Origin: an uncultured Desulfosarcina sp.
GTDB lineage: Bacteria > Desulfobacterota > Desulfobacteria > Desulfobacterales > Desulfosarcinaceae
NCBI GenBank assembly: GCA_963674945.2
Contig: CAXXWQ010000004.1
Location: 1,664,001-1,728,000, forward strand
Direction of reading: 5' to 3'
Length of the DNA stretch: 64,000 nucleotides
Positions 37,460 through 47,329 of the stretch are shown piece by piece. Each line of letters opens with the position of its first letter. Position 1 is the stretch's first letter. The position numbers and the translations under genes are program-made. Below the pieces are notes generated by a model. The model was not told the DNA's origin, made no database searches, and worked only from the letters and a program-made list of their open reading frames with translations.

Positions 37460-37536
37460 CGGGGCGTAGCGCAGCCTGGTAGCGCACCTGCTTTGGGAGC
37501 AGGGAGTCGGAGGTTCAAATCCTCTCGCCCCGACCA
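37460..37536 (+). tRNA. tRNA-Pro(TGG)
   Basis: CGGGGCGTAGCGCAGCCTGG...TTTGGGA...GGTTCAAAT...CCA. Confidence 0.97.
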
Positions 37537-37548
37537 AAATTTAAAATA

Positions 37549-37588
37549 AAAACGGGATATTGGCCAAATTGCTATCTTCCCGTTTTTG
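37549..37588 (+). terminator. Hairpin/terminator after tRNA-Pro
   Basis: AAAACGGGA...TCCCGTTTTT. Confidence 0.55.
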
Positions 37589-37601
37589 CCATTTTATTCT
37601 C

Positions 37602-37628
37602 GGGTACCCATCTGGGTACCCGTTTTGA
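37602..37628. promoter_or_regulatory. Integrase arm-type sites (2x GGGTACCC)
   Basis: GGGTACCCATCTGGGTACCCGTTTTGA is matched at 47133-47159. Confidence 0.65.
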
Positions 37629-37792
37629 TGCCTTTACAGAAACCTAAAAAAAGCCTCGTTTCCAGGACCATTTTTCCATGTATCACCCCTCCCTTTAAGA
37701 AAAAAACCATTGATTAATTTTATAGGATGCCGATATATAGAGTGTAAGCGATACTTCCGACTGCGCAAACGTTACAATTCAGAGGTGTTACA

Positions 37793-38128
37793 ATGTCAAA
37801 GATAAGTGTAAAAATGGAACTTAGGGTTCCAGTTGTGATTAAAAAAAAGGATAAGTGGTATTCTGCATCCTGCCCCGTCTTAGATGTTGTATCCCAAGGA
37901 AAAACTGAAAAAAGTGCTAAAAGGAATTTGGGTGAAGCCCTTGAATTGTTCCTAATGACTTGTTTTGAGATGGGCACCTTAGAGGATGTATTAAAAACCT
38001 GTGGTTTTGAATTAATTCCAGAGCGTAGAAGGAAAGATCGCGTCTCAAAGATCCATCCGGAAGATTATGTTGATATACCTCTTTATCTGCTTGCGAATAA
38101 AAATGGGATGGATAGTTGCCACGCATAA
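37793..38128 (+). CDS. hicB: HicB family antitoxin
   Basis: WYSASCPVLDVVSQGKTEKSAKRNLGEALEL signature. Confidence 0.82.
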   Translation: MSKISVKMELRVPVVIKKKDKWYSASCPVLDVVSQGKTEKSAKRNLGEALELFLMTCFEMGTLEDVLKTCGFELIPERRRKDRVSKIHPEDYVDIPLYLLANKNGMDSCHA

Positions 38129-38349
38129 CACCAGTTTGTTGGGAAATTTTAGAGTGCATTTTTAAATTAGCTGGCTTCGTATTTCACAGAAGCAAAGGAA
38201 GCCACAGGGTGTATGTAAAAGAAGGATGCATACGCCCAATTGTAATTCCCACCTATAAAGAAATTGGTCAGGACATCATTCTATCAAATCTGAGAACTGC
38301 CGAATTATCCCGCGACAAATATTTTAAATATCTATCAGAATGCAGTTAG
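38116..38349 (+). CDS. hicA: HicA family toxin (mRNA interferase)
   Basis: GFVFHRSKGSH...PIVIP motif. TTG start overlapping hicB. Confidence 0.85.
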   Translation: MPRITPVCWEILECIFKLAGFVFHRSKGSHRVYVKEGCIRPIVIPTYKEIGQDIILSNLRTAELSRDKYFKYLSECS

Positions 38350-38382
38350 TGTATCAATAAAACACGACCCAAGGTTTTCCCA

Positions 38383-38437
38383 CCGTTTCACCTTGACCAT
38401 CAGACCGGATTCTTGGTATTGAGTGGATGTTCATTTC
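38383..38437. repeat. 55-bp direct repeat, copy 1
   Basis: CCGTTTCACCTTGACCATCaGACCGGATTCTTGGTATT...ATGTTCATTTC. Second copy at 39350-39404. Confidence 0.85.
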
Positions 38438-44449: not shown

Positions 44450-44928
44450 CCACTTTTGTTTTTTCTCTTTTGAAGGATCTGTTTTTTCTTTACCGGGTCC
44501 GCCATAAGAGTTGCCCATCCACGGCCTTCTCGTGTATCTTTTCGTCGTGGTTTTTGTGGCGGTTCAAATTCAGGTTTACCGTACTTCCTCCATCGGAAAT
44601 CAATCTTGTATTTGGTCTCTTTCCTGTTATGCCCCCCAGATCCATATTCAGAGATATCCAAAAAACCTTTGGCCTGTAATTCATCTATGGCGTTTCTGAA
44701 GTTGCGCCGGTTGATCTTCTTGAGTTCGGCTGTGGCGTATGGATAGACCAGTTCTCCGTTGTTTTCGATGATCCATTCCTGCTTGTGTGAGAGCCAGTGC
44801 ATTTTCCTCATCCGAAGAAAGTCCAAGTACACCAACATTGACCATTTGTTCAGTGATCGAAAGGCATCGGATCGTAACAATGCCTTGTCGATATAGATGG
44901 AGTCCTTTTTGTTTCTACTTCCTGCCAT
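44437..44928 (-). CDS. Winged-HTH replication initiator-like protein
   Basis: SDAFRSL...NNGELVYPY...RNAIDELQAKGFL. Lies downstream of alpA and adjacent to the iterons. Confidence 0.6.
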   Translation of the reverse strand: MAGSRNKKDSIYIDKALLRSDAFRSLNKWSMLVYLDFLRMRKMHWLSHKQEWIIENNGELVYPYATAELKKINRRNFRNAIDELQAKGFLDISEYGSGGHNRKETKYKIDFRWRKYGKPEFEPPQKPRRKDTREGRGWATLMADPVKKKQILQKRKNKSGCQK

Positions 44929-45012
44929 TTTAGCCCCTTTTGTGATGGCCGATGGATACCGGGGCTGTGGTACCCATTTTTTCACTGGTGCCCGCCAGCG
45001 TCGGCCAAGTCT

Positions 45013-45198
45013 CTACCTTGCCGCTGCCTTCTGTTCGATCCACTCATCAACTTCGGATTCGAGCCACCCGGCAGAGTTGCCACCCAAACGAATACGCTTC
45101 GGGAATTTTCCGTCTCTCTCCCATCGCCATACGGTAGGACCGGAAACCCCACCGATTTTTTTTCTCAACTCTGGAAATCGGATAATTCTTTCACCCAT
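45013..45198 (-). CDS. alpA: AlpA family transcriptional regulator
   Basis: IIRFPEL...TVWRWERDGKFPKRIRLG...GWLESEVDEWI. Confidence 0.9.
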   Translation of the reverse strand: MGERIIRFPELRKKIGGVSGPTVWRWERDGKFPKRIRLGGNSAGWLESEVDEWIEQKAAAR

Positions 45199-45328
45199 TT
45201 TTTCTTGCCCCTTTCATGAAATAAAAATGCCTACCAAGTAGTTTCTTGATAGGCACTGTAATTTTCTGAAAGGCGGTTGTAACTCCGAAAGTTTTACCCA
45301 ACTTTCCGGAAGTTTTTAAGCTTCTGTT

Positions 45329-45865
45329 TTAATAACTATGTTCACCACTCCATTTAGATCTTTGTTTTTTCCAATAAGAATACCACTCGCCGACTTTTGT
45401 ATGGCCACCAACACCTAATTCTCTTCCAACGGTCTCATATAGGTGCACATCAATCGGTATATCAGGGTTTTGCTCTTTTATTTCAATGATTCGAAAATAA
45501 ACATCTAAACTTTTCTCTTTAAATTCGCGTTTTGTACCAATTTGCGTGTTTTTGGGGTGAGGCTTGCCGAAAACATCATCCCAAGATTTTGCTTGATAAA
45601 AAACCTTAGTGGTCCGAAACGCCTTAATATAGGCAACTGAGAGCCACTTAGGCATCACAAAACCGTTATGAGCGCATAAAAAAACACCCTCTGGAATGGC
45701 CGTCGAGTCCTTTGTTTCTGAATAATATTTCTCGACTTCCTCAAGTTCTTTGGCAGCTATCCACCTATCTATAATAGTACGTTCGCCTTTAAAACCATCG
45801 GCCCGTGTCGCATCAACCGCCTCATCAAACGACATGGCGAGGAGTTCTTCTAATGTGTCAATCAT
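45329..45865 (-). CDS. Hypothetical protein coupled to the integrase
   Basis: Start overlaps the integrase 3' end. SWDDVFGKP and a possible C-terminal HTH. Confidence 0.65.
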   Translation of the reverse strand: MIDTLEELLAMSFDEAVDATRADGFKGERTIIDRWIAAKELEEVEKYYSETKDSTAIPEGVFLCAHNGFVMPKWLSVAYIKAFRTTKVFYQAKSWDDVFGKPHPKNTQIGTKREFKEKSLDVYFRIIEIKEQNPDIPIDVHLYETVGRELGVGGHTKVGEWYSYWKKQRSKWSGEHSY

Positions 45866-47111
45866 GGCGCACCCCCGCAAACTGAATAACCTTCCCACCT
45901 TGTTGTTCGGTATGCCCCAGAATTTCGGATAACCGCTGTTCCCATCTTGCCAGCGCCTGGCGCTTTTCGGCATCGTATGAATGTTGATTATAGACCGCAA
46001 GTAAGCCCTGCAACTTGTGTCCGAGCACTCTCTCAGCAATGACATCGGATATGCCAATTTCAGCAAGTCGAGTTCGAACAGTCCGGCGTAGGTCGTGGGG
46101 AGTGAAAGGTGCATCAAGGCCAATTTCATCATTCCCCTCTTCGTCTTTTCCCCAGTGGCGCAAAATAGCCTTACCAATGGCCGCCCGGCTTAATGCCTGC
46201 TTTGGACGATAGCTGGATCGAAAAACAAAGTCGGTGTCATCAACCGGTGAATAGACTTTGGCTTGTTCGAGCACTTCCAGCGCCATGCGGTTCAATGGTA
46301 CACGGTTTTCCTGACGGTTCTTTGCCCGCTCCTCAGGTATGGTCCAGACCATGGCATTTTCATCGACTTCAGACCAACGCATGGCAGATATTTCACCCGG
46401 ACGCTGACCAAGCAACAGTATAAGTTTGATGGCCAATTTGGTTGGCCTGTAGATGTCAATTTTTATGTTTTCAAGATCCAGTGCTACCCAAAGCTTGCGG
46501 ATTTCCTTATCATCCAATACCCGCGTTCTCGGCTTTTCCTTTGGCCGTTTCATGCCTACCATGGGCGAAAAATCGATAATTCCCCGTTCGGCTGCAAAAT
46601 TCCACATGCGGACCATCGCCGATTGCAATCGACTTGCCCCGACTGGTGCCCTTTTCCGCACCTTATCAATAAGGAGAACCGCATCCCTGCGGGTTATATC
46701 TTTTACCTTACGTTTTCCCCAGGCAGGAATAACATCCTTTTTGATAAGGCGCTTGCGTTCATCGCCCGATGGTTTTTGGGAAAGTTCGACCTTGTAAAAT
46801 TCATCCAGCAATTCCGAAACGGTTGGCGCCGCCTTCATTTTTGCTTTTTTTTCTTTTTCGACCTGCCCAGGATCGATACCATTTTGCAGTTGCTTTATGG
46901 CCTCACCATGCCTTTTACGTGCTTCACCAATACCGATACCCGGAAATTGGCCAAGTGACATTCGTCTCCGGCGTCCGTCAAAGCGATAACGGAATATCCA
47001 TGTTTTTGTTCCGCTTGGTGCAACACGAACAAATAGGCCTTTTCCATCCTGTACTTCGTAACGTTTCGCCTTCTTAGACAACCGATTAACAGCAAGTTCG
47101 GTTAGTGCCAT
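45858..47111 (-). CDS. P4-family tyrosine integrase
   Basis: Arm-binding domain DGKGLFVRV...KTWIFRY, plus GQRPGE, AKN, TPHDLRR, LGH and VYN. Confidence 0.95.
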   Translation of the reverse strand: MALTELAVNRLSKKAKRYEVQDGKGLFVRVAPSGTKTWIFRYRFDGRRRRMSLGQFPGIGIGEARKRHGEAIKQLQNGIDPGQVEKEKKAKMKAAPTVSELLDEFYKVELSQKPSGDERKRLIKKDVIPAWGKRKVKDITRRDAVLLIDKVRKRAPVGASRLQSAMVRMWNFAAERGIIDFSPMVGMKRPKEKPRTRVLDDKEIRKLWVALDLENIKIDIYRPTKLAIKLILLLGQRPGEISAMRWSEVDENAMVWTIPEERAKNRQENRVPLNRMALEVLEQAKVYSPVDDTDFVFRSSYRPKQALSRAAIGKAILRHWGKDEEGNDEIGLDAPFTPHDLRRTVRTRLAEIGISDVIAERVLGHKLQGLLAVYNQHSYDAEKRQALARWEQRLSEILGHTEQQGGKVIQFAGVRHD

Positions 47112-47132
47112 GGCCCCTCCTTGTACAATCAT

Positions 47133-47159
47133 GGGTACCCGTTTGGGTACCCGTTTTGA
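47133..47159. promoter_or_regulatory. Integrase arm-type sites (2x GGGTACCC)
   Basis: Matches 37602-37628. Confidence 0.65.
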
Positions 47160-47284
47160 CCGTATTTCAGCGGTTTTTTATGAAACCCTATGAAATGCTA
47201 TTTAATAAGTTTTTAATGTTATGTCAATATGTTTTGATACGCATAGAAGGGATGTGAAACGTGGTGTAATCCGACTCTTTTAGA

Positions 47285-47329
47285 TTTGGGAGCAGGGAGT
47301 CGGAAATTCAAATCCTCTCGCCCCGACCA
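47285..47329 (+). repeat. att site (duplicated 3' half of tRNA-Pro)
   Basis: TTTGGGAGCAGGGAGTCGGAaaTTCAAATCCTCTCGCCCCGACCA. Confidence 0.93.

Follow-up and report, generated by a model that had tools for sequence, protein, structure and literature searches.

A 9.8-kb island of an uncultured Desulfosarcina sp., probably a working phage satellite with an HNH nuclease between two cos-like sites and a fused protease-capsid gene

A stretch of 64,000 nucleotides from an uncultured Desulfosarcina sp. (assembly GCA_963674945.2, contig CAXXWQ010000004.1, positions 1,664,001 to 1,728,000, hereafter the window) was analysed around an integrated element at window positions 37,492 to 47,329. The element is real and intact, and it is probably a working satellite. 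It carries a protease-capsid fusion and a packaging-type HNH endonuclease between two candidate cohesive-end (cos) sites, and no gene for a terminase subunit or a portal was found in it. An earlier note, made from the sequence alone, had proposed a satellite that supplies a capsid and takes portal, terminase and tail from a helper phage; this proposal fits all of the data and is partly supported. The reading preferred here, which is held only tentatively, is a cos-type satellite whose own capsid subunit would make up the greater part of a small head, assembled on a helper portal.

The unit is bounded by attachment (att) sites and measures 9,793 bp, with a GC content of 44% compared with 50-52% in the flanks. 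The left att repeat is the 3' end of a tRNA-Pro(TGG) gene. The core genes lie on the minus strand in the order tyrosine integrase, 178-aa open reading frame (ORF), AlpA, rep-like gene, 57-aa ORF, HNH gene and Peptidase_S78 plus Phage_capsid fusion, as follows:
37460..37536, plus strand: tRNA-Pro(TGG), the integration target (ARAGORN)
37492..37536, plus strand: left att site, 45 nt (direct repeat D3, with 96% identity between left and right copies)
47285..47329, plus strand: right att site, 45 nt, pairing with the left copy (96% identical)
37602..37628, no strand: putative integrase arm-type tandem repeat (repeat D2/I3)
47133..47159, no strand: putative integrase arm-type tandem repeat (repeat search and sequence reading)
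45858..47132, minus strand: tyrosine integrase with arm-binding domain (PF13356 and PF00589)
45329..45865, minus strand: 178-aa ORF, common to locus L276 (38% identical)
45013..45198, minus strand: AlpA regulator (PF05930, 56 bits)
44437..44985, minus strand: winged-helix, RepA_N/DnaD-like putative replication initiator (RepA_N, E=0.006)
44263..44449, no strand: putative origin with four palindromic repeats (pattern search)
43957..44130, minus strand: 57-aa ORF (no family match)
43438..43890, minus strand: packaging-type HNH endonuclease, probable start ATG 43845 (PF01844; phrog_144, E=1e-25)
41366..43210, minus strand: 614-aa fusion of an S78 prohead protease (about residues 1-158), a delta/scaffold region and an HK97-fold major capsid protein (PF04586 and PF05065)
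The two att sites and the arm sites of the earlier note were thus recovered, and its gene set of int, ORF, alpA, rep-like gene, HNH and protease-capsid stood, with the omission of five cargo ORFs on the opposite strand. Tandem repeats of a similar type were read directly in the sequence upstream of int in L276, L221 and L045.

The AlphaFold (AF2) model of the fusion displayed the protease, a helical scaffold region and the HK97 fold, with a predicted local distance difference test score (pLDDT) of 82.9, and HK97-fold structures were matched. The protease residues H66 and S114 are conserved, and we take them to be catalytic, after HK97 gp4. The capsid core, the E-loop region and the delta region are full length. 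Of the 89 columns that at least 90% of 79 phage capsids conserve, 79 are retained (phage median 87, range 75-89); the 10 changed columns are mostly conservative, and the core has no indels. These values argue against decay of the capsid, and the relaxed selection that the earlier note had named as a sign against its own proposal was not seen in the capsid core.

The best capsids from full phage head modules were 55-56% identical to that of the element. In an IQ-TREE phylogeny of 46 hand-picked rows, it was placed within a clade (98/99) where capsids of full phage head modules and of several satellite lineages occur side by side. The nearest relative, P0004, was 69% identical and unfused. The nearest one with gene context, L038, lies on a short contig with rep, TerS and capsid genes and no TerL or portal, and the closest full-length fusion with context, L033 (45% identical), has HNH, TerS and protease-capsid. 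In addition, related capsids are fused to the same protease type in L097 and L102, which are prophage-like loci with terminase and portal genes, so that such fusions can, by analogy, likely form the whole shell. An in-frame ATG (M168) was also observed at 42709 on the minus strand, at the border of protease and scaffold, with a purine-rich stretch upstream. It is a possible second start, which would give a 447-aa protein of the length of unfused phage capsids.

The HNH gene is flanked by two cos-like sites:
43860..43935, minus strand: cos-like site 1, just upstream of HNH, with its core at 43898-43894 (position weight matrix, PWM, 12.2 bits, rank 3 in the 64-kb window)
43350..43437, minus strand: cos-like site 2, just downstream of HNH, with its G-rich block from 43430 and its core at 43395-43391 (PWM 12.6 bits, rank 2 in the 64-kb window)
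In phage loci, a G-rich block and, after it, an ACCG core were found upstream of TerS, and 22 of 57 regions matched this pattern. The two-block PWM was built from 15 of these phage sites, while 7 of the 22 matches were excluded as coding or atypical. Sites of at least 12 bits numbered 244 genome-wide, and two of them fell together in 4 of 17,686 windows of 800 bp, a count for which the threshold was chosen afterwards and which may or may not include the element's own pair of sites. The viral contigs L114 and L175 begin 7-10 nt past the motif core, which is consistent with a genome end. The identity of the two candidates as cos is moderately supported by these patterns. The cos-like site of the earlier note was corrected to two candidate sites, one on either side of HNH. 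A role of HNH proteins in cos packaging is cited within bioRxiv 2022.09.08.507074.

Profiles built from related loci were searched in six frames of the element. No remnant of TerL, portal, TerS, head-tail adaptor or joining protein was detected (best domain E at least 1), in agreement with the earlier note, and no tail or holin gene was present among the annotated genes of the element.

Beyond the gene content, we infer all steps of the mechanism. A helper temperate phage of the HNH/cos type would derepress the element, which would be excised by its integrase and AlpA. The winged-helix initiator would then fire the adjacent repeats and recruit host replication proteins. The fusion protein would assemble on the helper portal, and its own protease would remove the scaffold region. 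The helper TerS and TerL, aided by the HNH of the element, would cut at one of the cos-like sites and package units of about 9.8 kb, and helper connectors and tails would complete the particle.

Several results weigh against this reading. In its conservation, the capsid ranks low among those of phages. The PWM training sites scored 6.8-39 bits in leave-one-out, compared with which the sites of the element are modest at about 12 bits, and this value was reached by just 5 of 21 portal-less loci. An nhmmer profile of phage cos-like sites missed both sites, and neither site, when aligned directly to 245 upstream regions, scored better than shuffles; since no phage was matched better than shuffles, no helper is named. 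The nearest HNH proteins sit beside their own TerL, and the exact gene set was found in 1 of 121 loci. Moreover, Ccm, the best-studied satellite capsid homologue, forms no shells alone (PMC8569155), and EcCICFT073 has full-size heads despite its capsid gene (PMC6092414). Finally, no helper with an HK97-type TerL, a P27-type TerS or a related capsid was found in the 98.7%-complete genome, and the HK97-like cos prophage that the earlier note had suggested looking for in the same genome was likewise not found.

The genome had no matches to TerL_ATPase, TerL_nuclease or Terminase_4, and the capsid of the element is its sole PF05065 capsid. The only portal in the genome is that of a large prophage on contig C3, which is of another type. 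This prophage was considered as the cognate helper and was rejected by inference, as its capsid and terminase are unrelated. The prophage-like region (G000:C3, about 865000-963600) contains the portal, a GpA-like terminase and a 479-aa capsid-like ORF, together with genes that by eye resemble queuosine/7-deazaguanine synthesis enzymes.

A 'shell-only' satellite was considered doubtful. Here, the self-processing protease-capsid would self-assemble into a small HK97 head on a stolen portal, and the private HNH and two alternative cos sites would steer the helper terminase without any terminase subunit of the element. If this were true, the Desulfobacterota would hold living intermediates between classical PICIs (phage-inducible chromosomal islands) and capsid-forming ones (cf-PICIs), with TerS-carrying and TerL/portal-carrying relatives.

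We give a similarly low probability to a modifier of the Ccm type, in which the fusion, unable to build a shell by itself, would co-assemble with the helper capsid, for example as pentamers, and redirect it to small heads, with packaging by cos and the helper terminase. The precedent is SaPIbov5, where Ccm fills pentamers and is insufficient alone (PMC8569155). The identity of 55-56% to phage capsids makes mixing plausible, and the satellite capsids of the clade lie dispersed among those of phages, with somewhat lower conservation. However, Ccm is just 24% identical to the helper capsid and SaPIbov5 has no protease, whereas the element has full-length core, E-loop and delta regions and has kept its protease residues.

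The element was compared with related loci. From 253 distinct capsid ORFs, 132 were left out for too little context, and 121 were scored with the local profiles; the genomes surveyed are samples and are not independent. An integrase and a capsid without TerL or portal occurred in 21 of the 121 loci, the element included. These comprised 11 loci with TerS, 6 with capsid alone, 2 with protease-capsid alone, L033 and the element, in which alone HNH occurred without TerS. The earlier note had suggested seeking int-alpA-HNH-protease/capsid elements without terL and portal; 20 other integrase and capsid loci lacking these two genes were found, none of them with the exact set.

Another 21 of the 121 loci were small HNH-TerL-protease/capsid-portal elements, of which 16 had no TerS and none had adaptor or joining matches. 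They include a family of integrated elements of 10-11 kb with int, helix-turn-helix/AlpA, primase or winged-helix rep, HNH, TerL, protease-capsid fusion, portal and a sigma70-r4-like regulator. Its members are L276:3574-13477, L221:310-9634, L222, L193-L196, L270, L277, L285, L286, L293, L294, L389 and L397. In this family, TerL lies between HNH and protease, and the portal lies 3' of the capsid. Compared with the element, L276 has the same order of int (55% identical), the 178-aa ORF (38%) and AlpA (61%), and the family HNH and protease are 35-46% and about 50% identical, respectively. In the HNH tree, the protein of the element is the sister of those from the small elements with TerL and portal (FastTree support 0.97), and its protease groups weakly with that family. 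In contrast, the family capsids are only 24-36% identical to that of the element and are separated from it at 100/100, and a motif conserved between HNH and TerL in the family was not found in the element. The backbone, HNH and protease are nearest to the TerL/portal-carrying family of about 10 kb, and the capsid and cos motif are of phage type. Since capsid clade and cos motif differ from those of the family, the element, as judged from its genes, is a mosaic rather than a simple deletion.

The same comparison bears on a further explanation, namely a stranded derivative of a TerL/portal-family or TerS-satellite element, left as a defence island after the loss of its packaging genes. The earlier note had stated that terminase and portal genes between HNH and protease in the closest relatives would indicate such a derivative. 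This applies in part, because the nearest backbone, HNH and protease relatives do carry TerL and portal, with the capsid clade and cos motif differing. The order int-ORF-alpA-rep-HNH-protease of L276, L221 and L222, minus TerL and portal, and the HNH and protease groupings fit this explanation, as do the TerS at this position in L033, the single occurrence of the gene combination and the lack of a helper in the genome. However, no fragments of TerL, portal or TerS are left, the capsid is not that of the family, the HNH-TerL motif is absent, the core genes are all intact and the att sites are 96% identical. On balance, a stranded derivative is unlikely.

Unit sizes were similar throughout. The span between direct repeats was 9.4-11.4 kb in 10 of 10 related elements examined, in a search limited to repeats 6-16 kb apart. 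The size of about 10 kb is kept though cargo replaces TerL and portal, as would be expected under the size limit of a small head. This clustering and the conservation of a 1.8-kb capsid gene make it least probable that the element is a cos-only hitch-hiker packaged as multimers in normal helper heads, with a dispensable capsid gene or one acting as an interference decoy, even though EcCICFT073 has two cos sites, no TerS, full-size heads and a capsid gene without a found phenotype (PMC6092414), marine VEIMEs (virion-encapsidated integrative mobile elements) are packaged as concatemers (PMC9618062), and a capsid gene is missing from L362, a sibling at the same site whose integrase is 76% identical.

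Elements that have a capsid or protease-capsid but neither portal nor TerL are known from phiRv1, the E. coli PICIs and Ccm of SaPIbov5, and the strategy is thus known in outline; the TerS-less, HNH-bearing mosaic with two cos-like sites is new and was seen once. Against the SatelliteFinder PICI core, three clear components of five were found: an integrase at one end, AlpA and a capsid gene. The position of the primase-replicase holds the winged-helix initiator-like gene and repeats, with weak structure matches, and no small terminase or Rpp homologue was found in the element. The element would work like a cos-type PICI, yet it is not filed as a typical member. The cos-type Staphylococcus aureus pathogenicity islands (SaPIs) carry a Stl/Str switch and a pri-rep module, in place of which the element has AlpA and the winged-helix gene.

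Gram-negative PICIs such as EcCICFT073 (PMC6092414, PMC10085698) are similar in size (about 10 kb) and in the int-alpA-replication-capsid order with accessory genes at the far end. They likewise have no portal, TerL or tail, two cos sites (candidates in the element) and no canonical TerS, the last being also the case for known cos PICIs (PMC6092414). Unlike them, the element has a winged-helix initiator for a primase, its own HNH and a Desulfobacterota host, its candidate cos is of HK97/HNH type and not of lambda type, and no TerS-like gene was found. Named relatives and Atlas taxa also point to a host in the Desulfobacterota. As in SaPIbov5 (PMC5052747, PMC8569155), there is a helper-type cos (here a candidate), a capsid homologue and presumed reliance on helper terminase and portal; unlike in SaPIbov5, the capsid is protease-fused and looks full length, HNH is element-encoded and the regulator is AlpA, not Stl. 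The Mycobacterium elements phiRv1 and phiRv2 (PMC12268328), classed as PICI (PMC10085698), share the size of about 10 kb, the integrase, excisionase, prohead protease and capsid, and no portal is listed for them. They differ in a primase, a terminase gene and separate protease and capsid genes, whereas the element has a fusion, HNH and no terminase. The cf-PICI EcCIEDL933 (bioRxiv 2022.09.08.507074) shares int, alpA, HNH, protease and HK97 capsid, and Firmicutes cf-PICI variants have a fused protease-capsid (PMC10085698). The element differs from cf-PICIs in having no TerS, TerL, portal, adaptor or connector, and it is not one of them. The family of about 10 kb (L276, L221, L222, L193-L196, L389, L397) is alike in backbone order and differs in TerL, portal, the sigma70-r4-like gene, another capsid clade and another cos-like motif. 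Furthermore, the capsid gene of portal-less satellites is 'thought to' remodel heads (PMC10085698), and portal-less HK97 mini-genomes with an integrase are encapsulin-like (PMC13669383). The literature compared also included PMC9026076 and PMC12822802.

In the literature search, as judged from listings and text passages, neither this gene set nor satellites of Desulfobacterota turned up in any paper; the tables of SatelliteFinder may already list such elements. No paper describing the HNH-TerL-protease/capsid-portal family surfaced either. This family of about 10 kb is apparently undescribed, and its novelty may exceed that of the element. The single self-contained protease-capsid gene makes the role of the capsid in portal-less satellites directly testable, and if the HNH biases packaging, the terminase would be hijacked without TerS. 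Moreover, the relatives of sulfate reducers hold a graded set of satellites of about 10 kb, including a TerS-less, connector-less capsid-forming family, which would probably escape the cf-PICI and PICI models now in use.

The putative replication initiator is a winged helix, and its match to RepA_N (E=0.006) is weak. Its top structure match was a plasmid initiator, a weak match (Z 7.3, root-mean-square deviation 4.4, 98 aligned), with primosomal DnaB and DnaD as close runners-up. The gene occupies the position of the primase gene of related elements, and no primase was found in the element. The iterons of the earlier note were confirmed as four palindromic GTGTYA-n4-TGACAC sites near the gene, at 44263, 44355, 44400 and 44434; the pattern was derived from the site itself, which makes its chance estimate circular. 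An 8-mer in at least 3 copies was found downstream of 16 of 25 distinct rep homologues; the same was seen for 139 of 2000 random windows and for 4 of 59 integrases. The initiator role is suggested by this context, that is, by the replacement of the primase in relatives and the downstream repeats of homologues. A 128-aa ORF at 44132-44518 was treated as spurious, as it overlaps the repeats and has no family match. A second rep-like homologue was observed in a degenerate island near tRNA-Arg and tRNA-Pro (G000:C3:2416000-2425000). Separately, L267:3290-11300 (also L213) lacks portal and TerL and contains an integrase, an AAA_25 helicase, a Nu1-like TerS, a protease-capsid fusion and a tape-measure-like gene.

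Excision was checked in assembled contigs of 4 sequencing runs from 1 study. No attP or attB junction was found, and the depth of the element was about that of the flanks; rare variants are lost in assembly and the runs are possibly the source sample, so that this result weighs neither way. No RNA sequencing run was listed as containing the element, and a promoter scan of it gave a result below chance. A loose contig end at 42701 suggested an insertion in the capsid gene; it was dropped because its letters are absent from the genome and the end was not among the further ends listed. Several loose contig ends of run X3 stop at GATC and look like library chimeras. At the same tRNA-Pro(TGG) in a genome of the same family, the sibling island L362 (G329:C2, about 2591600-2606100) has AlpA, a rep homologue and a pac-type TerS-like gene, and by eye insertion sequence (IS) elements interrupt it.

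The five plus-strand cargo ORFs (37793-41077: hicB, hicA, 214 aa, 277 aa and Abi_alpha) have a GC content of 38%:
37793..38128, plus strand: HicB-like antitoxin (phrog_497, E=2e-5; 46% identical to an L065 gene)
38116..38349, plus strand: HicA toxin (PF07927, 32 bits)
38571..39215, plus strand: 214-aa ORF, N-terminus lipoprotein-like by eye (no Pfam, PHROG or PADLOC match)
38379..38437 and 39346..39404: 59-nt direct repeat D1, 90% identical copies flanking the 214-aa ORF
39456..40289, plus strand: 277-aa conserved hypothetical protein (Atlas clusters at 0.96-0.97, without a common Pfam family)
40421..41077, plus strand: Abi_alpha abortive-infection-family protein (PF14337, 71.8 bits; PADLOC PDC-S47, E=3e-10)
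Abi_alpha and HicAB would give protection to the host and stability to the island. The 59-nt repeat may be a mark of cassette-like cargo acquisition, and it has partial matches elsewhere in the genome. A similar hicBA pair (46% and 55% identical) lies 3' of the capsid gene in a satellite of the same capsid clade (L065:12198-12745).

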